Part shown: positions 1 to 62,421 of the stretch, one piece after another | Layout of the letters: every line of letters begins with the position of its first letter | Numbering within the stretch: position 1 is the first letter of the stretch | Origin: Methanobacteriota archaeon | GTDB lineage: Archaea > Thermoplasmatota > E2 > DHVEG-1 | DNA length: 64,000 nucleotides | Reading direction: 5' to 3' | Assembly (NCBI GenBank): GCA_963769885.1 | Contig: CAVYNH010000005.1 | Coordinates: 96,001 to 160,000, forward strand | Position numbers and translations under genes: made by a program | The notes under the pieces: model-generated | The model's input: only the letters and a program-made list of their open reading frames with translations | Databases searched by the model: none | Told to the model about the DNA's origin: nothing

Positions 1-1678
1 CGGCGATGATGCTGCCGAACTCCTTGTAGCCGCGGATGTTCTTTTTCTTCATCCATTCGAGGACGAGAATGCGGTTCTTCATCTCTCCCTGGAGTTGCTC
101 GTCGGTCCAGTCGTTCCTGAGTTTGAGGTTGTTGAGGATCTTGCTGGAGCCGCTGGCTTCGAAACGGTCGTCGAGTTTGGAAATCCAGGTAAAGGGGGCC
201 ATGAAGATGAGTTGGTTGGTGTCGCTGTCGAGTTTGATGATTTCGGTGACGCTGGTTATGCGTCGGACCATCTTGCCGCCGATGTCGACAGCGTTCTGGA
301 AGACGATGACGTCAAGGGAGGTCAGAAGCGCGCGTGGCAACTCGATTGGTGGGTTCTCGAGACGCTGGATGAGGGTGTGGATGGTGCTGGCATGGACGGT
401 GGCGTACGCGGTGTGCCCGGTGGCCATCGCCTGGAAGAGGCTGTAGGCTTCCTTACCTCGGACCTCACCGACGATGATGACGCGCGGGCGCTGACGCAAC
501 GCCGCTCGGATGAGGTCGAACATGTCGATGTCTTTGCCGGTCTTGCTTTCGTCGCTCGCCGCGAAACCACGGCGGGTGGTGCCCGCGATCCAGTTCTTGT
601 GCGGGATGTTGACTTCCCTGGTGTCCTCGATGCTGATGATCTTGTGCGAGGTGGGGATGAAGAGCATGAGGGCGTTCAACGCGGTGGTCTTGCCGGACGC
701 GGTGCCGCCGCAGAAGAGGATGCTGGCGCCGTCCTCTATCGCCATCCAGAAATAGGCGGCCATCTCCGTGGACATGGACTTGAACTGGATGAGGTCTATC
801 GGGGTGAGCGGGGTTTCCTTGAATTTTCTGATGGTGAAGGTGGATCCTTTGGTGACGGTCTTCGCGAGGGTCGCCTGGAGACGGCTGCCGTCGGGAAGTT
901 TGCCGTCGACGATAGGGGAGAAGATGCTGATCTGTTTGCCGCTGATCTGGCAGAGCCTGCCGAGGAAGTTATTGAGTTCGGGTTCGTCGTCGAAGTGGAT
1001 ATTGGTCTCGATAGATTCGTATTTGCGGTGGTGGATGAAGATGGGGGTGTCAGGGCCGTCACAGGAGATGTCTTCGATACCGTCGTCGTGCATGAGGATG
1101 TCGATGCGGCCGTAGCCGAGGAAGTCGCGGAAGATGTGGTAGAAGATGGTGTCGCGGCTTTTTTCTTCGAAGACGATGTCGTTGTCTATGATGATGCGCT
1201 CGATAGTTTCGAGGAGGAAGTGTGCTTTTTCTCTGGGGTCCATGTCGAAGGTCTGGATGTCGGCGAGCATCTTGAAGAGGTGGGAGATCTCTTTCTTGGT
1301 TTCTTTCTCCTCGTCGGTGAGTCTGGGTTCCTCGACTTCGTAGCGGTATTCGTTGATGGTGTGGTCGAAGATGACGTGTTGCTTGCCGAGTTTCTTGTAG
1401 CCGAAGCCGTCCTGGGTCTCGATGACTTCGATGTTCGGGACGGCGGTGTCGGTGGTGGTCTCCCTTGCTTTTTTGGTGCGGGCGCGGGCGAGGAGGCTAA
1501 CCTGCTCTTCGCCGCTTGGTTTTGGTTTGCGTTGTGTCTTGGGTTTGGGGGGTGCGTCGATGAGTCGGTAGGGTTTGTTGTCTGGGGCGAGGGGTTCTTT
1601 GGGTTTGGGCGTCTCTGGCTCGTCTTTGTGTTCTTGGAGGACTGGTTTGCTTTTTTGGGCTTTTTCGAGGAGACCCAT
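1..1678 (-). CDS. Type II/IV secretion system ATPase (FlaI/VirB11/TadA family), 3' end truncated by window edge
   Basis: Not in the ORF track. Manual minus-strand translation from ATG at 1678 (MGLLEKAQK...) gives LGYGRIDILMHDDGIEDISCDG, GKLPDGSRLQ, FTIRKF, Walker A GGTASGKTT, ISIEDTRE, ALRQRPRVIIVGEVRGKEA and AMATGH. The frame is open to position 1. Confidence 0.93.
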   Translation of the reverse strand, partial: MGLLEKAQKSKPVLQEHKDEPETPKPKEPLAPDNKPYRLIDAPPKPKTQRKPKPSGEEQVSLLARARTKKARETTTDTAVPNIEVIETQDGFGYKKLGKQHVIFDHTINEYRYEVEEPRLTDEEKETKKEISHLFKMLADIQTFDMDPREKAHFLLETIERIIIDNDIVFEEKSRDTIFYHIFRDFLGYGRIDILMHDDGIEDISCDGPDTPIFIHHRKYESIETNIHFDDEPELNNFLGRLCQISGKQISIFSPIVDGKLPDGSRLQATLAKTVTKGSTFTIRKFKETPLTPIDLIQFKSMSTEMAAYFWMAIEDGASILFCGGTASGKTTALNALMLFIPTSHKIISIEDTREVNIPHKNWIAGTTRRGFAASDESKTGKDIDMFDLIRAALRQRPRVIIVGEVRGKEAYSLFQAMATGHTAYATVHASTIHTLIQRLENPPIELPRALLTSLDVIVFQNAVDIGGKMVRRITSVTEIIKLDSDTNQLIFMAPFTWISKLDDRFEASGSSKILNNLKLRNDWTDEQLQGEMKNRILVLEWMKKKNIRGYKEFGSIIA

Positions 1679-1684
1679 GGCTGC

Positions 1685-3073
1685 TCACTTTAGATGGTAT
1701 TTGGTCATGATCTTTTCGTAGAGTTCGAAGTCCTGGCTGTTCGCGAAGCGTTCGATGACGTCGTCGGGGAGTTGGCCGAGGAGCTTGTCGGTGAGTTGGA
1801 GGAATCGGAGGAGGTCGTCAAGGTCCGGCGTCGTGGTGGCGGGGGTATCGTGGTGGAAGTGAGAGGGTGTGGTGGTCTTTTTGGCGTGTTTTGCTGGTTT
1901 GGATTTTTTCATTTGTCTTGCCATTTTGGTCTTGAGTCTGTCTTTTTTGCGTTGTTCTTTGAGGAGGAGTTTTTCGTGTTGTTTTTGTTTCTTTGTCTCG
2001 AGTTTGGCTTTTTTGGCCTCGAGTTTCAGCTGTTTCTTTGTGAGTCTATCGGTGGCGGGGCCGATTGGTTCGTCCGGGATCTCGGGTTCGGGAGGCTCGT
2101 CGTCATCGTCGGCGGTAGTCGCTGCGGGTTTTTTGGGTGGTGTTTGTGGTTTGGCGCGGTGAAAGAGGGACAGTTTGGGTTTGGTTGGGGTTTCTTTCGG
2201 GGCCTCGGTTTTCTTCTGTTTTTTCTTTTGTTCTTTTTCCTCTTTTTCTTTTTGACGTTGGGCCTCGGCCTCGGCTTTTTCTTGGCGTCGGCGTTGTTCG
2301 GCCTCGTCGTGTTCGCGCTGTTTTTTTTCTTTAGCGACTTGTTCTTGGCGGTGTCGTTCTTCTTCCTGTTCGTGTTGCTTAATCTGTTGGATGCGGTCGG
2401 TGAGGTCGGGGATGTACTCAACGTCTTTGTCCTTGGTCTTTGCCTGAAGAGTGTATAATTGGGAACGGTCCATTGCAGGTTCTTGAGTATCAGCCATGGC
2501 GGAGAGGAAGGCGATGTCGTCATGAACGTGACGTGGGGTCGCGAAGTCGTCGTCATCCGATTCCTCGGGGATCCTCATGAGGCTTGGTTTTTCTCTGAGG
2601 TCGTTGAGATCGATGATTTCGACCTTGTTGGCATCGTGTCGGTGTGGGGTGACAAAGTCTTCGACGGAGTCAAGGGAGGTGATGAACCGGAAGCTGGGGT
2701 TGGTGCTGAGGGGGAAGTCGGTCTTGAACTCCTCGGGGATTGGGTGCGGGCGGGTGAGCGGCGACAGGGGGGCGTCGAAGGTGACCTCCTCGTGGCCGGG
2801 ATACCGTGCGAACGGGGCCCGGTCTTCGACAGGCGGCGGCGTGCGGTTGAGTTGTGGTTGAACTATCGGGGGGGCGGGTTGCCGTGGTTTTGAGTCTTTG
2901 AGGAGTTCGTCGATTTTCTTGACGATCTCGAGGTGGAAGTCAACGTTGGTGGTTGGTTCTTGCTTTGCAGGGATTTTCTTAAGGATCAGTGAAGCAGTTG
3001 ACAGGAAAAACAGGGATAAGCTAGCCTTCTCTCTCCTCTTTTCAGTAGTCTGCATGTGATGTTCCCATCCCAT
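1685..3073 (-). CDS. Hypothetical charged low-complexity protein with a compact C-terminal helical domain, probably co-transcribed with the ATPase
   Basis: 462-aa ORF ending 6 nt before the ATPase start. It has K/E/Q/P-rich linkers and the C-terminus LDDLLRFLQLTDKLLGQLPDDVIERFANSQDFELYEKIM. The start is uncertain. Confidence 0.75.
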   Translation of the reverse strand: MGWEHHMQTTEKRREKASLSLFFLSTASLILKKIPAKQEPTTNVDFHLEIVKKIDELLKDSKPRQPAPPIVQPQLNRTPPPVEDRAPFARYPGHEEVTFDAPLSPLTRPHPIPEEFKTDFPLSTNPSFRFITSLDSVEDFVTPHRHDANKVEIIDLNDLREKPSLMRIPEESDDDDFATPRHVHDDIAFLSAMADTQEPAMDRSQLYTLQAKTKDKDVEYIPDLTDRIQQIKQHEQEEERHRQEQVAKEKKQREHDEAEQRRRQEKAEAEAQRQKEKEEKEQKKKQKKTEAPKETPTKPKLSLFHRAKPQTPPKKPAATTADDDDEPPEPEIPDEPIGPATDRLTKKQLKLEAKKAKLETKKQKQHEKLLLKEQRKKDRLKTKMARQMKKSKPAKHAKKTTTPSHFHHDTPATTTPDLDDLLRFLQLTDKLLGQLPDDVIERFANSQDFELYEKIMTKYHLK

Positions 3074-3468
3074 CTCTCATTCTTGGTGTACTAGAATGCA
3101 CTTCTAATTATTTTGTACAGCTATTGCATCCCAGGACGTTGCCGTAGGTCGGTAACGGCCTATTTTTTAATAAAGATTTCTGTGGGGTAGGGGATAAAAA
3201 TGTTCGGCGGTGGTTTTTCGGAATCAGCGGTTTACCGATTCGGGTGTGGTTGGTGGTTTGTGAGTTTACCAGGGAAGGTATTAATAGGATGCCAGGGAAA
3301 ACATATCTTCATTGGCATGATATGCCATTTCACGGTATGCGGGAGGTTCCTTTAAGTACATACTGTGGTGTAAGGGGCGATTTCACAAACCTTAAATACC
3401 GAGCATGGCATTTCACAGCCAAGTTTACAGCTGAAGCCCGCATCGTCTGGGCATAAGGCTAGGAGAGA

Positions 3469-3921
3469 ATGGGAAACATGAAAGCAAATCGTAAGTTTAA
3501 GCAAGAGCAGGAAGCAGTCTCCGCTGTTATTGGTGTCATCCTCATGGTCGCCATAACAGTCGCGATCGCAGCAACCGTGTACGTCTATGTCAGTGGAATG
3601 ATTGGAACAGGCACACAATCAACACCTTCCATTAGCATGACTGCAAGCCCCGTAGCAGGCGGAGGTGTTTGTTCAGTCACGATTGCCACTGCGTCTTCAC
3701 CCAACATCAACTGGACTAGCTCTGTCACTGCGAACCTCAACTGTATTACAAATGCTACAAAAATGTCTGCTGGTCATTTAGGGTCATTACCCACCGGAAT
3801 GGTGGCTGGCGGAGATCTTCTTTCAATGATTGGCCTGACCGCAGGTAACCAATATTCCTTAACTTTAACCTATAAACCGACCGGCGGAACAATGGGAACA
3901 GTGACCTGGAGCCAGGTCTAA
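3469..3921 (+). CDS. Archaeal type IV pilin (DUF1628/Pilin_N)
   Basis: Class III signal ...KQEQEA|VSAVIGVILMVAITVAIAATVYVYV followed by a S/T/G-rich globular domain. The start may be 3478. Confidence 0.92.
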   Translation: MGNMKANRKFKQEQEAVSAVIGVILMVAITVAIAATVYVYVSGMIGTGTQSTPSISMTASPVAGGGVCSVTIATASSPNINWTSSVTANLNCITNATKMSAGHLGSLPTGMVAGGDLLSMIGLTAGNQYSLTLTYKPTGGTMGTVTWSQV

Positions 3922-3924
3922 ACC

Positions 3925-3973
3925 TTCCCTTTTTTTATCTTTTTTTTATTTTTCTTTTTTCTATCTTCTTTTC
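3925..3973 (+). terminator. Oligo-T archaeal terminator after pilin 1
   Basis: Several T7-T9 runs directly after the stop codon. Confidence 0.6.
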
Positions 3974-4093
3974 GTTTATCGTCTCATAGCAGCCGTAATC
4001 AATTTTACTGTCAAATGCACAATTTGGAAAAAAAATTAATTAACTATTTATAGCGGAAATGAATAAAGAAAACATTGAGTTGGGGTTCGAGAG

Positions 4094-4510
4094 ATGAAAC
4101 AGATTAGAAAAGATTACGAAGCGGTATCAGCAGTTATTGGCGTAATTATAATGGTTGCTGTTGCCGTAGCCATGGCAGCAGTAGCTTATGCATATTTTAC
4201 CGGAATGATCGGCCAACAACAAGAAGTCACTCCAACGTTTAGCTTTAATCCAGATGAAAATTTGAATACATTAACAGTAACTCAGATGGAGAAACCGACG
4301 AATTGGGAACAATTAAAGATCATTGAAAACCAAGGATCAACATCGATTGAAATTCAAAATCAAACAGGCCCAAAAACAGGACCCATTTCGAATGGAGACG
4401 TCGTTCTAATTAACGGTCATGGTTTGTCAGGAACAGTTATGGTCATGGTTGTCTATATACCGACTGGAACCATGGTATATCAAGGGACTTTTGTTGATGT
4501 TACTTCCTAG
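4094..4510 (+). CDS. Archaeal type IV pilin (DUF1628/Pilin_N), second paralog
   Basis: MKQIRKDYEA|VSAVIGVIIMVAVAVAMAAVAYAYF. Shares the GD(L/V) and PTG motifs with pilin 1. Confidence 0.9.
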   Translation: MKQIRKDYEAVSAVIGVIIMVAVAVAMAAVAYAYFTGMIGQQQEVTPTFSFNPDENLNTLTVTQMEKPTNWEQLKIIENQGSTSIEIQNQTGPKTGPISNGDVVLINGHGLSGTVMVMVVYIPTGTMVYQGTFVDVTS

Positions 4511-4826
4511 TCGGAATATACCGATTTAATTAGTCAACAAGATTTTCATTTGAACTTGCTTTTTTCCTTTCCTTAACCTTCTTCCCTATTCACTTAGGGG
4601 AAGTAAATTTCAGGCACAAGCCTAACCTGAAGAGCAGCTCCTATGAAAAAAAGGCTCCCGTTCGCCTCACGAACCTTGATCACCGTGAGCCCGAACTCGG
4701 GGACCCTGATACCACGTTGCAGAAAAAATCCTGCTTTACGCAAATTACCAAACCGTACAAAACACCAACACCGAAATAAAACCAGGACAAACCATAAAAA
4801 CCAGATCGAGGAAAGTACAGGTACGT

Positions 4827-5063
4827 ATGGTAACGGAGTGCGAGAACTGCAAAAACCTCATGGTGAAACCCTGGAAACCGATGACAAGCGAGGATCAACA
4901 CAAAAAACTAGACACTCTTGACAACTGCAGGTTCGGCCACAAGCAGGTACGACTGGACTTCGCAATCATCTATCCCGGCGACTGCCCAGACTTTACCTCA
5001 AAAAACACCCACATGAAAACACCATCCCAAATCTTCAACACCATGCAACTCCTTATTCTCTAA
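4827..5063 (+). CDS. Small Cys-containing hypothetical protein (possibly metal-binding)
   Basis: CENC...CRFGH...CPDF spacing. Short ORF with no other support. Confidence 0.4.
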   Translation: MVTECENCKNLMVKPWKPMTSEDQHKKLDTLDNCRFGHKQVRLDFAIIYPGDCPDFTSKNTHMKTPSQIFNTMQLLIL

Positions 5064-5398
5064 ACCAAACCAACCAATCCCCCTCTTCTCAAACATTCTA
5101 CATAGCATCCCTAACCATAATATGTGATCGTCCAACCATAATCGATATCTTAATAAAAGCCGTCCTGTTCCAGGGGCGCAATGCGCTTCACCCTCAAACC
5201 CGACGAAATCAATACGCAGACCACCGGCGTCACCATCATCATCCACTCGGCACACTAACATCGAAGGATACCGCAGTCTCAGCTCTTTTTAACCACGATA
5301 AAATGCAATCAAATGCCGTGAATTAACATACCAAGCAACTGAGCATCCATCATTCCAACATGCCTATTCATCAACCCATCCGTTTCTCTTAAAAAAGA

Positions 5399-6049
5399 TT
5401 AGGCATTGAACACCAGAGACTCCCCTTCACCGACTACCTCAACCTTCCCATCCCTGACCTTGACCGCCGACTGATCATCCAAAGCGTATATCGGCTCCTT
5501 TACTTGCCTCGCCATCTTCTCCAGGCTCTCCCGCCGCACACTCGGGAAATACGGCGAATTCAGATGCGGCCGGACATGAAACCGCACAAACCCAAGCGGT
5601 CGCTCATGCTCGTACCCCATCGGCTCAGAACACGTCATCCGCAGACTATGCGTCGCCACGATACTCCCCGCACTCGTCCCCACATACACCCGACTCCTCA
5701 ATAACTCAGGTAACAACCCCGCCAACCCAGACGTATTCAACCAATGCATCAAAAAATACGTATTCCCGCCCCCAATCATCACCACATCCGATTCCCGAAT
5801 ACGCGGTTCCCACACCGACCGCGGCACCGCCGCCACATCCACAATATCCATTGACGCCAACCCCAACCCCCGACACTGCACTAGATCCTGAATCAACCAC
5901 CACTTATCCCCCGGCTCCACATCCGCCGCCGTCGGCACAAACACCATCCGCACCTCCCCAAACGGCCTCCCCACTAACTCCAACAACGCCTTCGCGATTG
6001 ACTTGTTCGCAATCCCCGACGACGTCAACAACAACCGCACGATACTCAC
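5399..6049 (-). CDS. Peptidase E (S51) / class I glutamine amidotransferase-like protein
   Basis: LLLTSSG, FVPTAA, IGGGNT, YVGTSAGS nucleophile elbow, RPH, YALDD. Confidence 0.88.
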   Translation of the reverse strand: MSIVRLLLTSSGIANKSIAKALLELVGRPFGEVRMVFVPTAADVEPGDKWWLIQDLVQCRGLGLASMDIVDVAAVPRSVWEPRIRESDVVMIGGGNTYFLMHWLNTSGLAGLLPELLRSRVYVGTSAGSIVATHSLRMTCSEPMGYEHERPLGFVRFHVRPHLNSPYFPSVRRESLEKMARQVKEPIYALDDQSAVKVRDGKVEVVGEGESLVFNA

Positions 6050-7023
6050 GCCCTCGACAAGAACCCAAGCACCATCTTCACCAACTCATCGGTCTGCCCC
6101 TTCGGCACCACCGCCCCCATCACCTCAGCCTTCCCCCCGCACCGACACCCCGTCGCCCGCCCCTGTTCAATCAACGGCTGCAAATTCTTAGTACTCCGAA
6201 CATACACCTGATCGCAATCTTGGAAAAACCCGGTGTTTACCGTCACCGTATCCTGCTTTGTCTCCCAAAACACCTTCCGGGTCACCGTCGAAATAATATT
6301 GCACTTCGTTCGCATCCGCTTCACACACACCCCACCCACCTCCTCTCCCGGCATCTCTACCCACCGCCGGATCTCTTCCTCAAGGAACGCCAAGTTCTTC
6401 TTCCACCTCACATTCCCCAGGATCTCCTTCGGATCGGAACTGCGCAACAACAGCCGCGGTGCATCCATCACCGCCTTTCGATTCCCCACCTTATAACTCG
6501 AATCCAACAGATACACCATCGCCAACAACTCCTTCATCGTCAGCTGATGCTGTAGACAAAAACTATACAGGATCCCCGCAAACTCCTTGTTCGCCTCAAT
6601 CCGCTCCTCATGATCCCCCACCACCCCCAACACAGCAAACAAGTTCACCGGATTCCCAAAAAAGGTGTTGATGATCCAGCTCGCCGACGGAAACTTCTCC
6701 GCCGGCTCCCCCCGACTGACCGGATTCTCATGGGTTACTCCAGCAATTAACGGCTGCAGATGATGATCGAAGATAAACACCTGAGCCGATGCGGCCAGCC
6801 GTCGGATGTTCTCCTCCGGCAATGCCATATCCGCCACCACTACAAACTCATACTCGGAGTACGCCGCAAGCTCCTCCTCCGTCAAAAAATAATTCCCAAG
6901 GGCCGGCGTCTTGTTGACGACATGCTCACCAAGCCGCTGCAACAACAGGACCGCTGAACAGATCCCGTCCGTATCCCAATGATGAATCAGCAGCCCCCGC
7001 TTCCCTCGCAATTCTTCAAACAT
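6046..7023 (-). CDS. DHH-family phosphoesterase
   Basis: HHWDTDG, VVADM, IFDHH and C-terminal GG motif. Start moved to the ATG at 7023 to avoid overlap with the divergent gene. Confidence 0.85.
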   Translation of the reverse strand: MFEELRGKRGLLIHHWDTDGICSAVLLLQRLGEHVVNKTPALGNYFLTEEELAAYSEYEFVVVADMALPEENIRRLAASAQVFIFDHHLQPLIAGVTHENPVSRGEPAEKFPSASWIINTFFGNPVNLFAVLGVVGDHEERIEANKEFAGILYSFCLQHQLTMKELLAMVYLLDSSYKVGNRKAVMDAPRLLLRSSDPKEILGNVRWKKNLAFLEEEIRRWVEMPGEEVGGVCVKRMRTKCNIISTVTRKVFWETKQDTVTVNTGFFQDCDQVYVRSTKNLQPLIEQGRATGCRCGGKAEVMGAVVPKGQTDELVKMVLGFLSRA

Positions 7024-7123
7024 ACGAAAGACCTGACCAAATCGTACTTTCGTGACCGTTCCTGGTAAGAAACCAACATTCCTTAATATTACCTCCGCGA
7101 TATCCACTGTAGGGATACCTCAT

Positions 7124-7840
7124 ATGGAGATGTGGATGCTCGATGGAATCAGGCTTATTCTCGGAACCATCATCCTCCTCTACGCCTCCTACACCGACAT
7201 CAAGACACGGCACGCCTCCAACATCCTCTGGATCGTCATGGGCACCACCGGCGTCATCCTTCTCGCCATCCAATACTTCTTCTTCGGCTTCTCCAACTTT
7301 TGGTACCTCGTCTTCATCCCTATCATCATCGCCCTCATGTACGCCCTCTTCCAGATGCGCCTCATCTTCGGCGGCGCCGACGCCAAAGCCATGATGGCCC
7401 TCGCCGTCCTCGTCCCAATCGAACCGAAACTGAACAGCATTCCTCTCTTATGGACACCAATCTCAATGCCCTGGTCCTGGGTCATCTTCGCCAACGCCGT
7501 CCTCCTCTTCCTCATCATCCCCCTCAGCCTCATCATCTACAACGCCGCCAAACACAACCTCAAAATGCCCTACGCCTTCCTCGGCTACAAGATGAACATC
7601 CAAAAAGCCAAGACCAAGTTCGTCTGGCCCCTAGAAAAACTCGTCGACGGCAAACGCAAATTCTCCCGCATCCCCGACGAATTCGACGAAACCAGCCACC
7701 TCAAAGCCTTCGAAGACGCAGGCATCGACGAGATCTGGGTCACCCCCAAAATCCCCTTCATGGTCCCCCTTCTCGCCGGCTTCCTCACCGCCTTTTTCCT
7801 TGGCGACCTCATCAGTGCCTTCTTGCAAGCCATCCTCTAA
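7124..7840 (+). CDS. Prepilin/prearchaellin peptidase (A24B, FlaK/PibD type)
   Basis: ASYTDIKTR, FGGADAKA (GxGD-type aspartates), C-terminal IWVTPKIPFMVPL, multi-TM. Start set at the internal ATG 7124. Confidence 0.93.
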   Translation: MEMWMLDGIRLILGTIILLYASYTDIKTRHASNILWIVMGTTGVILLAIQYFFFGFSNFWYLVFIPIIIALMYALFQMRLIFGGADAKAMMALAVLVPIEPKLNSIPLLWTPISMPWSWVIFANAVLLFLIIPLSLIIYNAAKHNLKMPYAFLGYKMNIQKAKTKFVWPLEKLVDGKRKFSRIPDEFDETSHLKAFEDAGIDEIWVTPKIPFMVPLLAGFLTAFFLGDLISAFLQAIL

Positions 7841-7896
7841 ACAAAAGGATAAATCAAACAACACCATATATGAACAATCCCCCCGAGGTATAACCC

Positions 7897-8217
7897 ATGG
7901 GCTCACTCTACACCGCGGAATTCATTAACAAAGGAAGTCACCCCGTCTCCGGCTACTATGCCCTCCACGTCCTCAACGAACCCGACAAGCACCACGACTT
8001 CCACATTGAGCCCGGCAAGAAACTGCAGCTCAGCCTCGACTTCAGCGGCTTCTTCTACTGCGCCTTCTCCATCAACGAAGACGGCGGCAACCGCAAAACC
8101 CACTACCTCGAAATCCGCTCCACCGCCGACTTCCTCCTCCTCGAACAATTCCTCGTCAAAAACTACCACCTCGAACTCCAGAACGCCAGACCAGACTACC
8201 GAGAATTCCTCGAATAA
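7897..8217 (+). CDS. Hypothetical protein
   Basis: 106-aa ORF with a GAGGT RBS upstream and C-ending codons like its neighbours. Confidence 0.65.
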   Translation: MGSLYTAEFINKGSHPVSGYYALHVLNEPDKHHDFHIEPGKKLQLSLDFSGFFYCAFSINEDGGNRKTHYLEIRSTADFLLLEQFLVKNYHLELQNARPDYREFLE

Positions 8218-8253
8218 TCTAGAATTCTAAGAAAAAAAAGAAAGGGAGGCTGG

Positions 8254-10722: not shown

Positions 10723-11004
10723 AGAGTAATGGTCCCCTTTATTCTAATAGTATTTATATTGGTTAATTAAAGTTTGCCTGGTTTTTTAGGTGAGGACGGG
10801 AGATGAAAAAAGAGGCTCATGGTATGACCAGCAATGTCTACGCATCTGTAGAGTTCGGAAAAAATGAATGAACAGTTCGAAATGTCCGAACACGGATTTT
10901 AGTCAGCTACCGCAGCCTCTCCCATTGAGGACGCGCTATTCTTCTCTTAAGATACCCATCAGAAAAAAGAAATACCAGGGGTCTCTATACCCTGCGGACC
11001 AGAC

Positions 11005-14154: not shown

Positions 14155-14316
14155 AGGAGAAAGCCTCCAGATACCCCCCAGGAACAATCCCACTCATATA
14201 AATCTTTACTCCAAGAACACCCCCCCACCGAAAGCCTATAAAACCGCCACCACGATAAAAGAACCCAACCACACATCAACGAAAAACACAACACTGGGGA
14301 GGTGAAACACCAAGAG

Positions 14317-48964: not shown

Positions 48965-48978
48965 GGTGACCAAGCACA

Positions 48979-49359: not shown

Positions 49360-49384
49360 ACCTGTTTCTAGGGGGCGGGGCCAA

Positions 49385-50095: not shown

Positions 50096-50105
50096 GGCTT
50101 TTTTC

Positions 50106-50339: not shown

Positions 50340-50405
50340 GGTCCTAAGAATTCTTCTTACCTATTTAAATCATTGCGAAAAAATTGCCCTCGAATCAAAT
50401 CAGTA

Positions 50406-51563
50406 TTAGGAAGAAAACGGCACCGGTGCGAAACTGAGGACGAAGACGAGGAGGATTGCGAGGGCGATAAGGATGTCCCGCCTTCCCAAAGTTGTGATCT
50501 CATTGAGCGGTGGTTGGTGCTGGGTGCCGAGGAACAGCAGGACGATGAAGGCGAACATGAACCATCCGGTGTAGAACAGCCCAAGGATGATGAGGAGGAT
50601 GATGATGCCCCAGCTGATGTACCGAGCTTTGTCCTTGAAGACCGCCCGGGAGACGTGGCCGCCGTCGAGCTGGCCGACGGGCAGGAGGTTGACGGCCGTC
50701 AGGAAGATGCCGACCCAGCCGGCGTACAGCGTTGGATGGATGAGGGCGGTGCTGGGGATGGTGAAGAAGCTGCCGATCCATTGGATGAGCAGCGGGGGGA
50801 TGAAGTTGATGGTCTCGGTTGTGGATGGTAGGACCACCGGGTTTTGCTGCATGAGGAAGAAGCCGATGATGACGACCGGGATCGCGGTGAGGAAACCGCA
50901 GAGGGGGCCGGCCGCGCCGATGTGCAGGAGCGCTTTGCGGTTGGGGATGGGGTCGCGAGTGGAAATGACGGCGCCGAAGGTCCCTAAATCCAGATAGCCG
51001 GGGATCGGGGGTAATGGGATGAAGAAGGGCAATGAGGCGTCAACGCGGTGCTTGCGTGAGGCGAGGTAATGGCCGGTCTCGTGGATGCCGAGGATCGCCA
51101 TGAGGGGCAGCGAGAAGGTGAGGAAGCCGATGAAGAGGTAGTGGGGTTGGAAGCCGATGGCGAACATCTCCAGGATTCCGGGGTTGGCGGCGTTGGTCTT
51201 GACGAGGTCGAGGATGACCCATTGGAGGCTACCAGCGAGCGTCGTGGTGAAGATGGTCGCCGCAAGCAAGACGATGTTGACGTAGATGGATCTCGTCTTG
51301 CGTTGCTGTTTCTTCATGATGAAGAGGAGGTGTTCTCCCTGATGGGTCTGCAGCATCGGGATGTAGTCTTTTTCTTTGAGGGAATGGCGAAGGTCCTCGA
51401 ACTGGTCCCCTACGGTGGCCTCGTCGATGTGGCAGAAGAAGACGACGGCCTGGGGGGTGATCTTCACGTCGTAGAAGGGGAACCGCTGGCCGACTTGTTG
51501 TTGGAGGTATGGGATGTCCACAGGTTCGTTGGTGGTAGCGGTAGGGTCCTCTGTGGCCGGCAT
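50406..51563 (-). CDS. Site-2 protease (M50) metalloprotease
   Basis: HETGH, GTFGAVI, AGPL, NLLPVGQLDGGH. Confidence 0.95.
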   Translation of the reverse strand: MPATEDPTATTNEPVDIPYLQQQVGQRFPFYDVKITPQAVVFFCHIDEATVGDQFEDLRHSLKEKDYIPMLQTHQGEHLLFIMKKQQRKTRSIYVNIVLLAATIFTTTLAGSLQWVILDLVKTNAANPGILEMFAIGFQPHYLFIGFLTFSLPLMAILGIHETGHYLASRKHRVDASLPFFIPLPPIPGYLDLGTFGAVISTRDPIPNRKALLHIGAAGPLCGFLTAIPVVIIGFFLMQQNPVVLPSTTETINFIPPLLIQWIGSFFTIPSTALIHPTLYAGWVGIFLTAVNLLPVGQLDGGHVSRAVFKDKARYISWGIIILLIILGLFYTGWFMFAFIVLLFLGTQHQPPLNEITTLGRRDILIALAILLVFVLSFAPVPFSS

Positions 51564-54597: not shown

Positions 54598-57500
54598 ATG
54601 TCGGACGATTTTCATACAGAAGCCAAGGAAAAACCGACCACCGGCCAGGACACCGCGCACTTCATCCTCAACAGCCGTGGCGAACTCCTCGACGCCAGCG
54701 ACGCCTTCTGCCGCCTGGCCGGCAGACGCCGCGATGCCCTCATCGGCACCACCCTGGAAGACGCTGGACTTCTCACCGACATCTCCGCCAAGGCGCTCCG
54801 CCGCCGCCACGTCTCTGTTCTCATCGGCAAAGCACCTCACACCTACACCCTCGAAGTCCGCGCCAAAGACGGCGGCATCTCCCTCCTCCACATCGACTCC
54901 ATCCCCTACCTCAAAGACGGCAGACTCATCGGCGAGCTCGCCACCGTCCACAGCATCACCCCCCAACCCCCATCCACCGACCAACCACTCACGACCATGA
55001 CGACTGAGCCGCGCCCAGGCACCGACCCCACCGCGATCCTCCAAGACCGCCTCGAAGACCAACACCACAAACTCCACCAGACCCAACAGAAACTCCGCAA
55101 GGCACTTCTCGACCTCGAAACCAAGACCTCACACATCCAAGGGCTCCAAGACGAGCTCGACGACACCGAACAGCAGCTCCGCCAACGCCTCCACGACCTC
55201 GACGACGCCACCAAACAACTCAGACAACGCCAATTCCTCCTCGACCAAAAAGATCAAGAACTCACCCGCCTCCGCGACGACCTCACCGCCGAGACCAGCC
55301 AACACCAAACCAAGAACATGGAACTTGAACACCTCAACGCCAGGCTTCAAGACGCCCTCACCACCGCCGAAAACCTCGGCGAAGACCTCACAGAGGCCCA
55401 GCGACTCCTCCTCCAGAAGACCCATGACGCCGACCAAAAGGCCGCCGAGATCAAAAACCTCACCGGCCTCCTCGAGGACACCCGTCAGACCCTCGCCGCC
55501 CTCCAAGCCGAGCAAGAAGGCATCATCGAAACAAACCAGGCGCTCACCAGCCAACTGACTCAAACTCGGCAGGACGCCGAGACCACCGCTGACACGCTCC
55601 GGCAGACCCAACAGCAGCTCCAAACCAAAGACCAAGACCTCGCCGCCGTCCAGGCCGCGCTCCACGCTAAAACCCAAGCACTCGCCGAGCAAACCATCCA
55701 CTTCACCGAACTCCAAGAAGCCGTCCGAAGCCTCCAGGAGACCATCGCCGAACTCCGTCAAGCCCACACCGACAACGAAACCGCCCTCGCCGGCCTCACC
55801 CAACGCCTCACCGAAAAAGACCAAGTCCTCCAACAAGCAGCCCAGGACCTCGACCGCACCCACGCCGAAACCCACACCCTCCTCGGCAAACTCGACAGCA
55901 GAGAAAAATACATCAGCTACCAAAACAACCAGCTTGACCGCTACGTCCACCAACAAAACATACTCACACAACAACTCAACGACCTCACTGCAGCCCTAGA
56001 AAAACAGACCGCGGACCACCACGCCACTGTCCTCGCCCTCGACCACAGCCACGATGAAACCGATCTTCGCACCGCCGAGATCCGCCGACTGTCCCGCCTC
56101 CTCGCCGACGCCCGACGCCACGCCGACGCCATCACCATCGATCTCGCCGACACCAAGACCCACGCCCTCGAAACCACGGCACAGCTCCAAGACCGACTCA
56201 CCGAACTCCACGCCCTCCAAACACAGCACCACGACCAGGAGGACGCCATCACCCGCCTCCGAAGTCAGATCACCGAACGGAACACCATCATCCAACAACT
56301 CACCGACCAGGTTGAAAACCTTCACCAGGCCGCGGCAGCCGCCGCCCACGACCACGACAGCCTCGCCACCGCCCTCACCGACACGAAAGACGAGACCAAC
56401 CGCCTCCAGGACGCCCTCACCCAAAAAGAAGGCGACCTCCGAGACAAAGACGCTGAAATCACCGACCTGCGGACAGCGCTGCGGACCGCAGAACACCACC
56501 TCAAGACCATTACCCAGACCGCCACCTGCCTTGAACAAGAACTCCAGAAAAAAGACGCAGTCCTCGAACAAAAAACCGACCTCATCAACACCCTCCAATC
56601 CGACCTCGAAGACCAACACCGAGACCTCCAAGAACACCTTCGCCATGCAACCCACCTCCACACTGAGTTCACCGATACCCAACACCTCCTCGCCGACCTC
56701 CAAAAAGAGATAGCCGAAACCACCGCCGTCAGCGCACTCCTCCAAGAGCAACTCACCGCCACAACTGAGGACCGTGACCACCACGCCCAACTCCTCACTC
56801 AGACTACCCAAGACCTCCAAACCCGAACCCACCTCCTCGACACACAGACTGAGGAACTCACCCGCCTCAAGGCCGACCTCGCCAAATACACCCAAGACCT
56901 CGACCACAGCCATCAACGCATCATCGAACTCGAAACCGAGCTTGAAGAAAAAACGACGGCCCTCGACGACACCACCCGACTCCTCACCCAAGCCACACAA
57001 GAAGCCCAGGCACGCACCCAAGAGGTCAGCGAACTCACCGCCGGCCTCAACGCCCGCAACCGCGAACTCGACCAACAACTCCAACTCATCGCCACCTTCA
57101 AACAAGAATCATTCGATAACCACCTCAGCCTCACCGGACTCAACGAAGAACTCGCCGCCCGCCAGCACGAGCTCCAAACACAGACCGCAGCCCTCACCCA
57201 ACTCCAAGAAACACTCACCGCACTCCAGAAAGACAACGCAGACCACACCGCCCTCATCGCCATCCTCAAAACCGAACAAGCCACCAAACAAGCCCTCCTC
57301 GAACAACAGACCGAGGCCCTCACCAGACAACGCCACGAGCTCACCCACCTCCACGACAACCTCGACGCTCAAAAACACCTCCGAGAAGAAACAGACCAAA
57401 GACTCCACGAGACCCTCACCCAACTCCAAACCCACAAAGACCACATCTCCAAACTCTCCACTGAGCTTCTCGCCAAAAACCAACAACTCCAAACCATCGA

Positions 57501-60500
57501 ACAGACCCTCCAGCAGCACCAACACGACCTCCAAGAAAAAACACAGCTCATCCAACACACCCACCACCAACTCGCAGACCTCGAAAAAGAACTCCACAGC
57601 CACCACCAAGAAATCAACGACCTCCACCACTCCCTTGACGAACGCAACCAAATCATCGCCGACCTCACCGGCCAACTCACCGACACCCAAAGCAGCCTGC
57701 TCCAAGAGGCCAAGGCCGCCGACACTCTCAACGACAACCTCACCAACACCAGAACCCTCCTCACCCAGACCCAAGCAGAGCTGGAAACTAGCCACCACCA
57801 GCTTCACCAGGCCAAGAGCGACTGTGAACGCCTCACCGAACAGCACACCGCCCTCACCGCCGAACTCCAACGAATCACCACAGAGCTCGCCGCGCAACAC
57901 CTGGCATCCCAAAAACAAAAAACCGAACTCAAAGACCTTCAAACCGAGATCCACACCCGAGACTTCCTGATCTCCGACCTCACTCATCAACTCACCAAAG
58001 AACAGACCACAATCACCCAAAAAACCCAAGAAAACCAGACGTTAACCGAGGAGCTCGCCCGCACATCCGAACTCCTCCTCCAAGGTCAAGAATCCCTCAC
58101 CGCCAAACAAAATGAACTAACAGAGGCCACGCAGACACTCGACGAGCTCACCACCACCATCCAATCACTTAAAGAAGAGATAGAAACCCGGGACATCATC
58201 ATCAGCGACCTCACCCAACAGGCCAGTGAAGAACAATCAAAACTCGTCACCACCGCAACCCAGATCGAAGACCTCACCAGAGAACTTACCGAAACCCAAG
58301 ACAGGCTACACGGCAGCCAAACCGCAGGCCTTGCACAGGAAGCCGAGCTCACCCGACTTAAGGAAGAACTCCACGACCGCCTCCAGGACCTCGCCTACCG
58401 CAACAACGATCTCAACGACCATAAGGCTCGAATCAACCAGCTCAGCACACAAATCGAGACCCAAGCCCAGGCCCTCCAGCAGGATCAAGCAGAACTCGCA
58501 CGCCTGAACCAACTCAACCGCCAACAAGCTCTCGACCTCAAACAGGCGCGCGAGGAGACTGAAAAACAATGGATGGAATTAGTCCTCAAGAACATCGACA
58601 TCCAGGATAAAAGCGAACTTATCACCGAACTCAACGAAAAAATCACCCAAGACCAACAGATCATCACTATAGCAGAGAGCGACTTCCAGACCAAGACCAC
58701 GCATCTCTCAAGCCAAATCCAGGACCTCCAGAGTACACTGCAAAACACCCGGACCATGCTCGAACAATCCACCGACGAAATCCAAAGCCTCAACCAAGAG
58801 ATCATCGGAAAGGACCGGCTCCTCCAAGACCTCAGCCGACAACTCAGCGACGAACAGACCTCCCTCATCGAGACTGTCTCAAAAAAACACCAGCTCGAAT
58901 CGGAAGTCGAGGTACAACGACAGCACAATGAGACGCTGCAGGGAACGCTCCGTGACAAAGAACAACACCTCCACCAAATCGAGGAGGCTCTCAAGTCCAG
59001 CGAGCTTCAACTCACGGACCTACAACGGGAACTCACGGGTAAAACTCGAGACCTCGAGATCGCCACAACCGAGTTGACCGCCAGGGAGGACCATCTCGAG
59101 AAACTGCAAGCCTCCCATACTTCACTTCTCCAAGATGACGAGAGACTGAAAAAGCAACTCGAGGACCTCACACTGGAGAAGCAGAACCTGCGATCATTGC
59201 TCGACAGCATCGAACAAGGAAGCGCCTCCTCCATCATCATGACCGATGCCAAAGGCATCATCACCTCGTGGAACCCGCGCGCCGAGCAGCTGTTCAACAT
59301 GCCCGTCACCTCCGCAATCGGACGACAGCTTACAGACCTTCCATTCCTCAAAGACGCCCTCTCAAATACCGTGAACATCCTCACAAAGACCTCTGAACAT
59401 TCGATCATCATCAAGAACCAGCGGAACGAGGAGCTCCTCACGGATATCTCACGGATTCCTCTGCTCAACGACGTCGGAGAAGGTTATGGGTCTCTCATCA
59501 TCATCGATGATGTTACACCGATGGCTGGGTTGCATGCAGAACTCTGTAAAAACAAGGCGGATCTTGAGGCGCTCAGCAATCGCTATCAACAATCCTTCAG
59601 AAAAATGGCGATTGCCGAGAAGGAGCTACAGGAGAACGAAACCGAGTTGCGTGTTAAAAAGCAGGCTCTTGCTGAACAAGCCCAGGAGATTTCGGGGCTT
59701 CAGAAGGAACTCGAGCGTCATTTTGAGGTGGTGAAAACCAAGAATTCGCAGTTGGAGCAAGTGGTTAGAACCCTTCAAGAACGAGACTCGGAACTCGATG
59801 AGTTGCGTCAGAAGACCACCAATGGCCAAGACGAGCTCCTGCATGCCAAGAACCTTATTGCGAATCTGGAAAACGAGCATCATCGAACGGTCGATGAGCT
59901 GCATGATGTTTCGACAAAGTTGAAGGAAGCACAAAAGGAAATCATAAGATCCGAGGATCTATGCCAGAGGTTCCAGGCGCACCTCCTCAAGCAACAATGC
60001 GAGGTGAGCCAAAAGGAGCTTGAGATTAAGACCCTGGGGGATAGCGCTGAGAATCGGACGAGGGAACTGGAGATTGTCACGAAGCGGCTTGAGGACAGCA
60101 CGCTGCAGCTGTCGGCCTCTACAATCAGGATTGAGAGAGCGGAGAAGGATTTGAAGAAACGAGAGGAGGAAGCATTGCTTCTCCGCCAGCAGGTAAAAGA
60201 AAGGCAGACCGTACTTCTCAGGGTCACTGATGAGAGAGACAACATCGTGCAACAATGTGAAACCCTGAAGACCGACCTTGTTTCTGCTCGGAAGGACATG
60301 GAGGAGCTCTCGAGTGAATTAAAGGCGAATAAGGCATCGGTGCTTTGGTTCAAGACGGAACTTGAGGGGACGAAGGAAACCTTGCGGCTCAAGGAGAACG
60401 ATGTGCATGTGAGACTTGCAGAAGCGGAGGATCTGCGAAAACAAATCGGTGAGCTTAAGATTGCTCTTCTTGAAAGGAACCATGACGTAGAACACGTACG

Positions 60501-61575
60501 GGAGGAGGTCGAGGGCCGGCAACAGCAGATAGGCATCCAGGAGCAGATTGTGCAGGAGTTAAAGAAACAGCTTGCGGCACGGCAGGTCCAGGTGAAGCAA
60601 CGAGAGGATGAGCTGTGGCAAAAGACCCAGCTCATCGAGAATTTAAAAGGCGAGCTTGAACGTTATCAGCAGCGAATCTCGGACCTTGAGAGTTCCTCGC
60701 TGGAGCAGGAAAAGGAGGCGGCGCAACGCAGCTCGGTGCCGGCGCTGAAGACCCAGGAGATCAGCGTTTTACAGGAAGAACTGGAGAAAATCACCGAGAA
60801 GCTCCGGGAAAGGGACGGGGAAATGCTCGAGGTTCGGAAACAGTTGGAGGCTGCTCGCTTGGAGGCAAACAAGAGGAAACTGGAGGTTGAGGATCTCAGC
60901 CTCAAGTGCCGTCTAATTCAAAACGAGATTCCTTCATCTGTGATCATGGTGGATGAGAAGAATCAGATCGCAGCGTGGAACAAGAGGGCGGAGATGCTGT
61001 TGGGTGTGGAGGCGAAGAAGGCGATTGGTTGCGACTTGTTCAATTTGTCGTTCATGGAGCGGGAGCGGCTGCGGGAGGGCTACGCCCAGAGTGTCTCGAA
61101 CCGAAGGGATGTGACAATCAAGGCGATCATCTTTCCCTCGTCGAATGAGGAGAAGGCCTTGGTGGATGTCACCATCCATCCGGTATTTGGTGAGGCAGGA
61201 AATCCTATGGGTGCACTATTGGTCATGGATGATGTGACGAGCCGGGTGGCGGTCGAGGCGGAGCTTCATCGGAAGGAGGCTGAGGTCGGTGAGTTGAATC
61301 AGCGGTTGGCGGATTCGTTTAAGAAGAATGTGTTGTCGGCGTTGGAGGGGGATGCGTCGAAGCGTCAGGCGGTGGGTGAGGTGGCGCGGCCGGCGTTCGA
61401 GGATCGGACGGTGATTGCGGGGGATTTGTCGGTGGTGGCGTCGCGGCGGCCGGCTGAGGAGGGGCCGGTGGATGAAGCGTGGCAGGAGCGTGTGCGGGTG
61501 TGCGGGGAGATCGAGCGTCGGTTGGATGAGGCGGGGGTGGTGAAGGTGAAGAAGGAAAAGGAGGAGGGGAAGTAG
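54598..61575 (+). CDS. Giant (2325 aa) coiled-coil protein with three PAS domains
   Basis: PAS motifs at about aa 20-120 (ILNSRGELLDAS), 1535-1640 (IMTDAKGIITSWN...DDVT) and 2105-2215 (IMVDEKNQIAAWN...DDVT), with heptad-rich sequence between them. Confidence 0.88.
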   Translation: MSDDFHTEAKEKPTTGQDTAHFILNSRGELLDASDAFCRLAGRRRDALIGTTLEDAGLLTDISAKALRRRHVSVLIGKAPHTYTLEVRAKDGGISLLHIDSIPYLKDGRLIGELATVHSITPQPPSTDQPLTTMTTEPRPGTDPTAILQDRLEDQHHKLHQTQQKLRKALLDLETKTSHIQGLQDELDDTEQQLRQRLHDLDDATKQLRQRQFLLDQKDQELTRLRDDLTAETSQHQTKNMELEHLNARLQDALTTAENLGEDLTEAQRLLLQKTHDADQKAAEIKNLTGLLEDTRQTLAALQAEQEGIIETNQALTSQLTQTRQDAETTADTLRQTQQQLQTKDQDLAAVQAALHAKTQALAEQTIHFTELQEAVRSLQETIAELRQAHTDNETALAGLTQRLTEKDQVLQQAAQDLDRTHAETHTLLGKLDSREKYISYQNNQLDRYVHQQNILTQQLNDLTAALEKQTADHHATVLALDHSHDETDLRTAEIRRLSRLLADARRHADAITIDLADTKTHALETTAQLQDRLTELHALQTQHHDQEDAITRLRSQITERNTIIQQLTDQVENLHQAAAAAAHDHDSLATALTDTKDETNRLQDALTQKEGDLRDKDAEITDLRTALRTAEHHLKTITQTATCLEQELQKKDAVLEQKTDLINTLQSDLEDQHRDLQEHLRHATHLHTEFTDTQHLLADLQKEIAETTAVSALLQEQLTATTEDRDHHAQLLTQTTQDLQTRTHLLDTQTEELTRLKADLAKYTQDLDHSHQRIIELETELEEKTTALDDTTRLLTQATQEAQARTQEVSELTAGLNARNRELDQQLQLIATFKQESFDNHLSLTGLNEELAARQHELQTQTAALTQLQETLTALQKDNADHTALIAILKTEQATKQALLEQQTEALTRQRHELTHLHDNLDAQKHLREETDQRLHETLTQLQTHKDHISKLSTELLAKNQQLQTIEQTLQQHQHDLQEKTQLIQHTHHQLADLEKELHSHHQEINDLHHSLDERNQIIADLTGQLTDTQSSLLQEAKAADTLNDNLTNTRTLLTQTQAELETSHHQLHQAKSDCERLTEQHTALTAELQRITTELAAQHLASQKQKTELKDLQTEIHTRDFLISDLTHQLTKEQTTITQKTQENQTLTEELARTSELLLQGQESLTAKQNELTEATQTLDELTTTIQSLKEEIETRDIIISDLTQQASEEQSKLVTTATQIEDLTRELTETQDRLHGSQTAGLAQEAELTRLKEELHDRLQDLAYRNNDLNDHKARINQLSTQIETQAQALQQDQAELARLNQLNRQQALDLKQAREETEKQWMELVLKNIDIQDKSELITELNEKITQDQQIITIAESDFQTKTTHLSSQIQDLQSTLQNTRTMLEQSTDEIQSLNQEIIGKDRLLQDLSRQLSDEQTSLIETVSKKHQLESEVEVQRQHNETLQGTLRDKEQHLHQIEEALKSSELQLTDLQRELTGKTRDLEIATTELTAREDHLEKLQASHTSLLQDDERLKKQLEDLTLEKQNLRSLLDSIEQGSASSIIMTDAKGIITSWNPRAEQLFNMPVTSAIGRQLTDLPFLKDALSNTVNILTKTSEHSIIIKNQRNEELLTDISRIPLLNDVGEGYGSLIIIDDVTPMAGLHAELCKNKADLEALSNRYQQSFRKMAIAEKELQENETELRVKKQALAEQAQEISGLQKELERHFEVVKTKNSQLEQVVRTLQERDSELDELRQKTTNGQDELLHAKNLIANLENEHHRTVDELHDVSTKLKEAQKEIIRSEDLCQRFQAHLLKQQCEVSQKELEIKTLGDSAENRTRELEIVTKRLEDSTLQLSASTIRIERAEKDLKKREEEALLLRQQVKERQTVLLRVTDERDNIVQQCETLKTDLVSARKDMEELSSELKANKASVLWFKTELEGTKETLRLKENDVHVRLAEAEDLRKQIGELKIALLERNHDVEHVREEVEGRQQQIGIQEQIVQELKKQLAARQVQVKQREDELWQKTQLIENLKGELERYQQRISDLESSSLEQEKEAAQRSSVPALKTQEISVLQEELEKITEKLRERDGEMLEVRKQLEAARLEANKRKLEVEDLSLKCRLIQNEIPSSVIMVDEKNQIAAWNKRAEMLLGVEAKKAIGCDLFNLSFMERERLREGYAQSVSNRRDVTIKAIIFPSSNEEKALVDVTIHPVFGEAGNPMGALLVMDDVTSRVAVEAELHRKEAEVGELNQRLADSFKKNVLSALEGDASKRQAVGEVARPAFEDRTVIAGDLSVVASRRPAEEGPVDEAWQERVRVCGEIERRLDEAGVVKVKKEKEEGK

Positions 61576-61584
61576 GGGCTGGGT

Positions 61585-62196
61585 TTAAGGGTAGAGGGTG
61601 ACGAGGCTGTTGGTGGTGTAGGGGACGTCGAAGGTGAAGGTTTGTTGTTGTCCGGGGGTGGGGGTGATGGTGAGTTGGAGGGTGTCGTAGGGTCGTAGGT
61701 AGGTTTGTTCTGGGAGTTTGACGAGGAGGAAGCCGGCGTCTGTGTTTTTGTTGAGGGTGTGAGCGGCGAGGGCGGAGCCGTCGTCGTCCGTGATCATTTG
61801 GATGGTGAATGACCCAGGTTTGAATTGGTCCCAGGCGGGGTTGTGGAAGAGGGCATTGGTGGGCTCGTCTTTGGGGACGTCTCGGTAGGGGAGGATGAAG
61901 GCGTCGTCGGGGAGGGTGAGTTGGAGTTGTATTTTGGTGAGGTCGATGGTGCCGGTGATGAGGGGGCGGATGTGGATGGCGAGGCGTTGGATGCCGTTTG
62001 GGGTGTCGTATTTGCCGATGATTTGGTCGATTTTGAGGTAGGTGGTGAGGTCGTTGGTGATGTCGGTGACGGCTTGGTCGAGGGCGTTGTTGGCAGTGGT
62101 TTGGTTCTTGATGAAGATGGAGCCGGCGGTGGCGCCGATGGCGATGACGGAGGTGATGAGGACGATGGGGAGGAGGCCGAGGGTTGCGTCTGACAT
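61585..62196 (-). CDS. Divergent archaellin-like protein
   Basis: N-terminal hydrophobic helix, ITNDLTTYLKIDQIIG, LAIHIRP, IDLTK, DDDGS. These align by eye with the adjacent archaellin. Confidence 0.7.
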   Translation of the reverse strand: MSDATLGLLPIVLITSVIAIGATAGSIFIKNQTTANNALDQAVTDITNDLTTYLKIDQIIGKYDTPNGIQRLAIHIRPLITGTIDLTKIQLQLTLPDDAFILPYRDVPKDEPTNALFHNPAWDQFKPGSFTIQMITDDDGSALAAHTLNKNTDAGFLLVKLPEQTYLRPYDTLQLTITPTPGQQQTFTFDVPYTTNSLVTLYP

Positions 62197-62421
62197 AGGT
62201 GCTCTGGGTGTTGGGGTTGGCGGGCGGCTTTATATGTCTTATTGAACAGTTGGTACCGAGGGTAGGGGGCTTCTCCTGGTTTTTCAGTGGTTTCGGTTTT
62301 TTTTGGTTTTGGGATTTTTCCGCCATACGATTAAATAATTGGCCGTGTGAAACATTTCCACGATAGTCCTTGTCCTGGCATCAGGTCGCAAGGATAACGA
62401 AAGAACAGAAGGTGAAAGGAA

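Follow-up and report, generated by a model that had tools for sequence, protein, structure and literature searches.

Kilobase domains of alternating amino/keto strand skew, with G/T-to-A/C switches at promoter regions, along the chromosome of an uncultured Thermoplasmatota archaeon

Introduction

Strand skews are a standard sequence-only read-out of chromosome copying and repair. Here we describe intense skew domains in a Thermoplasmatota metagenome-assembled genome (MAG; 2.09 Mb in 7 contigs, 55% GC, 92% complete), taking as reference a stretch of 64 kb (contig C5, 96001-160000), which is called the window below and numbered from its own first letter. A sequence-only reading of the window had picked out by eye a saw-tooth succession of C/A-rich and G/T-rich tracts on the + strand, which gene direction did not explain, and had suggested a strand-asymmetric process radiating from many fixed points. 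Following the + strand from left to right, we call a change from G/T-rich to A/C-rich sequence a P switch and the opposite change a Q switch. SecY and its neighbouring genes place the genome among uncultured sediment Thermoplasmatota, the best 80 SecY loci all belonging to Thermoplasmata or Thermoplasmatales MAGs, SM1-50 among them.

The closest described systems share some of these features. Budding-yeast origins carry skews in GC and in TA that are associated with replication, the leading strand being A/C-rich (Marsolier-Kergoat 2012, PMC3459929). As in yeast, the strand running outward from the switches described here is enriched in A and C, the switches are intergenic and many per chromosome, and both GC and TA skews take part. 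Unlike in yeast, single genes here reach 0.9 at fourfold-degenerate sites, the spacing is ~12 kb, and the organism is an uncultured 2-Mb archaeon with one recognisable origin of the origin-recognition-box (ORB) type. The yeast skews are said to be much weaker, and visible only in averages over many origins. Human skew N-domains (Touchon, Huvet and colleagues) reportedly show a repeated jump and return of skew, read as origins with graded termination between them; their origins are said to be upward jumps, opposite in sign to the switches here, on a scale of about 1 Mb and with small amplitude.

In bacteria, the GRINS of polyketide synthase (PKS) clusters are duplicated regions of >500 bp and >80% identity (PMC8256042). 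They resemble the present domains in that their GC and TA skews are intense, go together, peak at third codon positions and change sign abruptly, and in the accompanying amino-acid shifts between Gly/Val/Cys/Trp and Pro/Thr/His/Gln. The domains here differ in being unique sequence that tiles a whole chromosome: the window has the skew of a GRINS element, but no hit of >500 bp and >80% identity against its own genome, and was rejected as a member. In Haloferax volcanii an origin lies at a maximum of the third-position cumulative GC skew (PMC12999951), which is the polarity of P, and third-position and non-coding skew runs against gene-strand bias, as it does here; there, however, the skew is chromosome-scale and follows the gene-strand bias, and no orientation-independent 5-kb domains were reported (PMC12999951). 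Codon usage set by the DNA strand on which a gene lies, and not by the gene, is shared with Borrelia and Lawsonia (e.g. PMC2671203), which have two replichores per chromosome and a G/T-rich leading strand in place of about 340 domains. We found no description of kilobase skew domains in the literature on Thermoplasmata or archaea, and the skew reported here, in a lineage not yet cultivable, is of far greater strength and on a far finer scale than the skews ascribed to replication and transcription in the papers with which we compared it.

Results and Discussion

Skew domains of alternating polarity tile the chromosome

Composition at neutral sites was measured at fourfold-degenerate positions, as GC skew or as keto-minus-amino (K-M) skew, in 1,692 genes called genome-wide with a three-class codon-model gene finder that recovered 38 of 40 seed genes; domains were segmented by hysteresis at +-0.3 on smoothed fourfold sites. 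This segmentation gave 168 P and 169 Q switches with a median half-domain of about 5 kb, and strongly skewed DNA holds 61% of the fourfold sites. The chromosome is a series of about 340 domains of about 5 kb and alternating polarity, in which neutral sites are driven to A/C on one strand and to G/T on the other. As a description this is solid, and the pattern is strong and genome-wide: the absolute GC skew of 1-kb windows has a median of 0.17 and a 90th percentile of 0.39, and the coding-sense fourfold GC skew of genes is spread near-evenly from -1 to +0.9 (mean -0.25), 19% of genes lying above +0.2.

The extremes are close to single-base usage. Fourfold sites of the extreme A/C class contain A.08, C.83, G.05 and T.04, those of the extreme G/T class A.05, C.11, G.72 and T.13, and those of neutral genes A.19, C.35, G.28 and T.18. 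The same classes in relatives of 41-42% GC hold A.40-.43 with C.30-.36, and G.32-.42 with T.30-.38, so the invariant is amino (A+C) versus keto (G+T), and genome GC content sets which of A or C, or of G or T, dominates within a class.

In the window, GC skew ranges from -0.54 to +0.52 over 1-kb windows, with AT skew opposite in sign. All seven C/A-rich tracts and all eight G/T-rich tracts seen by eye have the right sign (K-M skew -0.25 to -0.44 and +0.11 to +0.38, respectively), and the composition of the encoded proteins tracks the skew as proposed, codon positions 1 and 2 shifting along with it. Among the 38 window genes verified by Pfam (two further ones, orf462 and a CdvA-like gene, have no hit above the curated cut-off), coding-strand fourfold GC skew runs from -0.94 in the beta-CASP gene (14302-15726) to +0.87 in the S51 peptidase gene (5399-6049). 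The carB, ProRS and beta-CASP genes lie between -0.87 and -0.94; to the eye, the codons of the last are nearly all NNC/NNA and those of the S51 peptidase gene NNG/NNT.

Polarity belongs to the DNA strand and not to the gene

The genes that had been singled out because gene direction does not explain their skew are genuine, and their coding strands are G/T-rich at fourfold sites, +0.31 to +0.87:

5399-6049, -, Peptidase_S51 (Pfam E=1e-29), coding-sense fourfold GC skew +0.87
6046-7107, -, DHH (Pfam), coding-sense fourfold GC skew +0.75
46665-47258, -, DUF2085 (Pfam), coding strand +0.67
23560-24399, +, TRM5/TYW2 (Pfam)
24330-24920, +, Tsr3 (Pfam)
36311-37303, +, Cbf5 (Pfam)

As a guard against circularity, 20 strongly G/T-rich-coding-strand genes chosen at random outside the window were sent to Pfam, and 18 of the 20 matched, including ribosomal protein S2, a RadB-like ATPase, UbiA and a formyltransferase. 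An artefact of shadow open reading frames (ORFs) was thereby ruled out as the source of such coding strands.

Gene direction does not account for the pattern. One explanation that would tie the two together is transcription: passage of RNA polymerase, including read-through and antisense transcription from bidirectional promoters, would make the non-template strand A/C-rich, and polarity would record the net direction of passage. It draws support from the coding strand being the A/C-rich one in 78% of strongly skewed coding DNA. If transcription set the skew, its sign should follow each gene's coding strand; gene strand explains only 21% of the variance of + strand fourfold skew (R2=0.21), and in pairs of neighbouring genes that lie on opposite strands the + strand skews correlate positively (r=0.43 for 276 convergent and r=0.44 for 281 divergent pairs, against r=0.69 for same-strand pairs). 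Highly expressed ribosomal-protein genes occur in both polarities: the polarity of a 17-kb run of them on one strand (contig C4:271.8-288.2 kb) flips two or three times, and the S2 gene, verified by Pfam, is G/T-rich on its coding strand (+0.65). Whole gene runs with G/T-rich coding strands exist, and for these, as for S2 and other highly expressed ribosomal genes, antisense flux would have to exceed sense flux.

A second explanation, selection for codon usage in two translational gene classes, one with C/A-ending and one with G/T-ending codons, has in its favour that nearly every codon within a gene obeys one rule. Such a bias should be limited to codons and independent of the neighbouring DNA. 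Intergenic spacers carry the same skew (r=0.63 with their flanking genes, attaining GC skews of about +-0.3), the classes follow the DNA strand continuously across oppositely oriented neighbours, and single genes and operons switch class internally. The skew shared by opposite-strand neighbours and spacers excludes codon selection as the driver, and we give it next to no probability. Polarity is a property of the DNA strand and not of the gene, and it tracks positions. Within genes the skew has a gradient, the second half exceeding the first by +0.09 (p=5e-19).

The domain map of the window illustrates this:

1..2801: G/T-rich (+ strand) domain over the T2SSE ATPase gene (2-1678, -) and orf462 (1685-3073, -), coding-strand fourfold GC skew -0.77 and -0.62
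2801..4700: reset zone P1 (G/T to A/C), by way of a low-GC (41-45%), skew-neutral island with a pilin gene (3469-3921, +)
4700..8456: A/C-rich domain; S51 and DHH genes (both -) G/T-rich in coding sense, A24 peptidase gene (7052-7840, +) -0.88 in coding sense
8456..11022: G/T-rich domain over a C25 peptidase gene (8254-10722, -); Q in the 3' part of the gene, P in the divergent spacer before DnaJ
13800..17152: A/C-rich domain over part of AsnA (13021-14193, -; coding +0.46), beta-CASP (14302-15726, +; -0.94) and HD-OB (15766-16845, +)
17152..24875: G/T-rich domain spanning carB, carA and XPD (all -), then TRM5 and Tsr3 (both +)
27500..29449: A/C-rich domain over the ADP-forming acetyl-CoA synthetase gene (28360-29793, +); Q within the gene
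29449..31741: G/T-rich domain over CarS and ArsR (both -), ending at the strongest reset of the window (step 1.45)
31741..37282, +: co-oriented run of a methyltransferase (MTase) gene, L15, SecY, Adk, EMC3, an unnamed ORF and Cbf5; coding-strand skew ramp from -0.65 to +0.3
38021..46219: G/T-rich domain over CitMHS and four ABC transporter genes (all -), fading by way of a low-GC island with a Big_7 gene (44490-45833); reset at about 46.2 kb
46219..50425: A/C-rich domain; DUF2085 (46665-47258, -; +0.67) flanked by plus-strand genes including ProRS (-0.87)
50425..51514: G/T-rich domain over an M50 peptidase gene (50406-51563, -)
54598..61575, +: giant ORF of 2325 aa, A/C-rich over its first ~4.7 kb (fourfold K-M -0.65 to -0.93) and G/T-rich from about 59.3 kb (+0.1 to +0.32)
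62196..62449: reset P (step 1.2) in the divergent spacer before archaellin genes

Opposite coding-sense skews on opposite strands, as in the S51, DHH and A24 genes, mean that the + strand is A/C-rich throughout 4700..8456. The change of polarity inside the giant ORF, which had been noticed by eye, is borne out. The MTase-Cbf5 run has its Q switch within SecY, at about 33.7 kb, and is followed by a reset at tRNA-Ser (37458-37546); the strongest reset of the window, at about 31741, occupies a divergent spacer with tRNA-Ala (31483-31554).

A/C-rich strands begin at promoters and end almost anywhere

The two kinds of switch differ in where they fall. P switches lie in divergent spacers in 45% of cases (8% expected by length), in tandem spacers in 23%, within genes in 28% and in convergent spacers in 4%, and 48 of the 51 strong P steps occupy a spacer, divergent or tandem, that has a gene start. 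Q switches lie inside genes in 60% of cases, which equals the random expectation, and are almost never divergent. In P spacers the skew sets in about 60 nt upstream of the start codon, leaving the spacer core neutral, and a regression kernel computed from transcription-unit starts is directed downstream, at -0.2 to -0.3 with a decay over 3-5 kb; upstream, in tandem context, it reaches +0.05. Transfer RNA genes occur in 9 of 102 P spacers against 9 of 542 control spacers, and the promoter-like word AAATACCCG in 11 of 102 against 5 of 542. As universal reset points tRNA genes were rejected: the skew falls at 26 of them and rises at 17, for a weak mean change of -0.087. The proposal of fixed reset points holds in that resets sit in promoter-bearing intergenic regions that are conserved in relatives.

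The saw-tooth shape itself, with gradual C-to-G passages and abrupt G-to-C resets, survives in part. Abrupt drops of raw skew do outnumber abrupt rises two or three to one (48 vs 16 and 81 vs 39 at 500-750 bp), and of the drops 85% fall between genes. At fourfold sites, P and Q alike span about 1 kb (medians 939 vs 948 bp), G-to-C being only somewhat sharper, and the profile is nearer to a square wave.

These positions bear on transcription from both sides. Switching at promoters, the downstream kernel, the onset just before the start codon and the enrichment of tRNA promoters are what RNA polymerase passage would give. Against it, most Q switches lie inside genes and not at terminators, and the sign is wrong: the known transcription asymmetries, in which the non-template strand is deaminated while exposed and repair prefers the template strand, predict the opposite polarity. 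On balance transcription as such seems rather unlikely.

Polarity is maintained in several relatives

Gene order from XPD to Cbf5 is conserved in relatives, and L002, L003, L005, L011 and L012 share the sign pattern: XPD is negative, both TRM5 and Tsr3 are positive, and the skew ramps between MTase and Cbf5. TRM5 and Tsr3 are also G/T-rich in five relatives, and the MTase-Cbf5 ramp recurs in L002, L003, L005, L011, L025 and L038. Compared with the closest relative, fourfold sites show an identity of 0.55, where composition would give 0.32-0.61. These sites are near saturation, so the shared polarity is maintained rather than inherited. It can also change: L025, which keeps the gene order, lacks the reset between ArsR and MTase, and L026 has the opposite polarity over carA-XPD-TRM5 in the same order. 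Polarity is therefore not set by gene identity or orientation, and these two relatives count further against transcription. Skew domains are absent from low-GC relatives, complete chromosomes included.

This comparison also bears on a third explanation, a patchwork whose blocks would stem from horizontal acquisition, recent inversion or mis-assembly. In its favour, two islands of low GC and neutral skew (about 3-5 kb and 44-45.8 kb) do lie at resets. But an inversion moves a gene together with its skew and so cannot create a G/T-rich coding strand, housekeeping genes are affected, and synteny and polarity are common to MAGs from independent studies. Neither of the two outcomes that would have undone the sequence-only reading was seen: coding strand and expression level do not fully account for the skew, and the resets, lying in conserved synteny, do not coincide with mis-joins or recent inversions. 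A patchwork origin is extremely improbable.

DNA synthesis from promoter regions as a candidate mechanism

In the spacer upstream of orc1/cdc6 (contig C6:261631-262035), a pair of ORB boxes (261745 and 261903) flanks an AT-rich stretch. The genes on its two sides are co-oriented, and the spacer is a P-type switch, the + strand passing from +0.81 to -0.23/-0.42. A replichore origin with a G/T-rich leading strand would switch from negative to positive, the reverse of what is seen at this spacer, and no replichore-scale trend appears in the genome, 40-kb means of fourfold K-M skew staying within +-0.17 on contigs of 183-785 kb. In the A/C-rich outward strand and the intergenic switches, the data agree with a yeast-type arrangement. 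The nucS gene directly adjoins orc1/cdc6, and the oriC-like spacer lies beside the two (contig C6:259508-262035).

We tentatively favour directional DNA synthesis launched from promoter regions, by which the outward strand would be made A/C-rich, a polarity that matches both the ORB-bearing oriC here and the yeast origins. Starts would be made at a subset of promoter regions, about 170 of ~1,170 transcription-unit starts, strong promoters such as those of tRNA genes being favoured. The process would travel several kilobases regardless of what lies downstream, the strand running 5'->3' away from the start turning A/C-rich, and where opposed tracts met the stronger would set the polarity, which would yield plateaus and Q switches at arbitrary places. 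It would most likely be DNA synthesis, replication-like or long-tract repair and perhaps transcription-primed, with RNA polymerase passage itself less likely.

The amino/keto character might, more speculatively, come from mismatch repair. NucS/EndoMS is the sole mismatch-repair system we identified, MutS not being found in this 92%-complete genome. EndoMS cuts G/T, G/G and T/T mismatches and not A/C, C/C or A/A (PMC6159521). The errors left on a new strand should then be G->A, T->C, G->C and T->A, and a strand made more often or less faithfully would drift towards A/C. This would agree with the amino/keto nature of the skew and, for synthesis directed outward from P, with its sign. The fuller version, in which the chromosome would be copied or re-synthesised from about 170 promoter-linked, ORB-independent sites, eukaryote-like or R-loop-primed, with NucS/EndoMS setting the amino/keto character, is more doubtful than promoter-launched synthesis as such.

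Several observations weigh against these proposals. ORB boxes were found at no P switch other than the oriC spacer, only two Cdc6_C matches were found, and a density of one initiation site per 12 kb (about 170 across 2.09 Mb) has no archaeal precedent. A de novo k-mer search of 102 reset against 542 control spacers found no strong motif shared by P switches, only promoter-like AT-rich words and AAATACCCG, and about 220 of 296 divergent promoters are not P switches. Of the strong Q steps, 14 of 15 are intergenic; some tracts stop abruptly at the ends of operons, such as the rpo operon, where a fork has no obvious reason to stop, which hints at a component linked to RNA polymerase. NucS, tried as a discriminator between skewed and unskewed relatives, was rejected because it occurs in both groups, in unskewed complete chromosomes too, and is thus at most permissive.

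A further alternative is recombination at hot spots. Breaks or nicks at promoters would be resected 5'->3', and deamination of the surviving 3'-ended strand, or G-protecting heteroduplex repair, would leave mirror-image skews. Its sign fits, the strand ending 3' at P being G/T-rich on both sides; fourfold GC climbs with absolute skew from 0.63 to 0.88, as biased gene conversion predicts; and GRINS, with the same amino/keto skew, have been linked to gene conversion (PMC8256042). A simple biased-conversion model would, however, put a peak of fourfold GC near P, and there is none; the upstream effect in tandem context is small, the core of P spacers is neutral where a single sharp switch point would be expected, a skew of 0.9 requires dominance over all mutational input, and the window has no repeats or conversion tracts. 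We consider it improbable, and slightly more so than transcription. Our ranking would accordingly place promoter-launched DNA synthesis first, a transcription effect linked to the polymerase second, and break and resection with biased repair third.

As to the process that the sequence-only reading had envisaged, its strand asymmetry and its fixed points stand. Dispersed replication initiation, one of its suggestions, fits the polarity at the sole ORB origin and in yeast, but not the absence of ORB boxes elsewhere; synthesis linked to repair or to transcription is possible, and a chromatin boundary alone yields no strand asymmetry.

If the domains do record synthesis from promoter regions, some archaea would not rely on a few Orc-bound origins, and the switches would amount to a map of about 170 start sites. 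Were the NucS/EndoMS link true, it would also explain the GRINS of Streptomyces. In practice, position-dependent codon usage, amino-acid composition and ORF statistics mislead gene finders and would mislead codon-based predictors of expression or of horizontal gene transfer, and long shadow ORFs arise on the A/C-rich strand.

Further features of the window and genome

The longest ORF is often the wrong one in this genome. Long shadow ORFs without Pfam hits lie opposite real genes at 2-1693 (+), facing the T2SSE ATPase gene (2-1678, -), and at 10936-12078 (-), facing DnaJ (11005-12117, +). The giant ORF has only weak coiled-coil-type matches in its N-terminal two thirds and at least three in-frame PAS domains in its C-terminal third, which is the G/T-rich part; no output domain was seen in it.

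The low-GC (41-45%), skew-neutral islands at about 3000-5000 and 44000-45800 contain a type IV pilin gene and the gene of a Big_7 surface protein, respectively, and look like more recent acquisitions that do not yet have the local skew. The flip from GGTTTT to AAAACC at 25487-25523, noted by eye, is present: the spacer between Tsr3 and a C25 peptidase gene holds a small inverted repeat, GGGTTTTCCAGCAAAACC, and after it A/C-rich repeats. The inverted repeat may be a terminator hairpin. This C25 peptidase gene (25626-27944) is one of two gingipain-like ones in the window, the other being at 8254-10722, and it is the one with PKD domains; related Thermoplasmata from sediments have been proposed to degrade proteins extracellularly. 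Elsewhere in the genome, a large terminase gene with a G/T-rich coding strand is found on contig C7 (177718-178974; locus L098).

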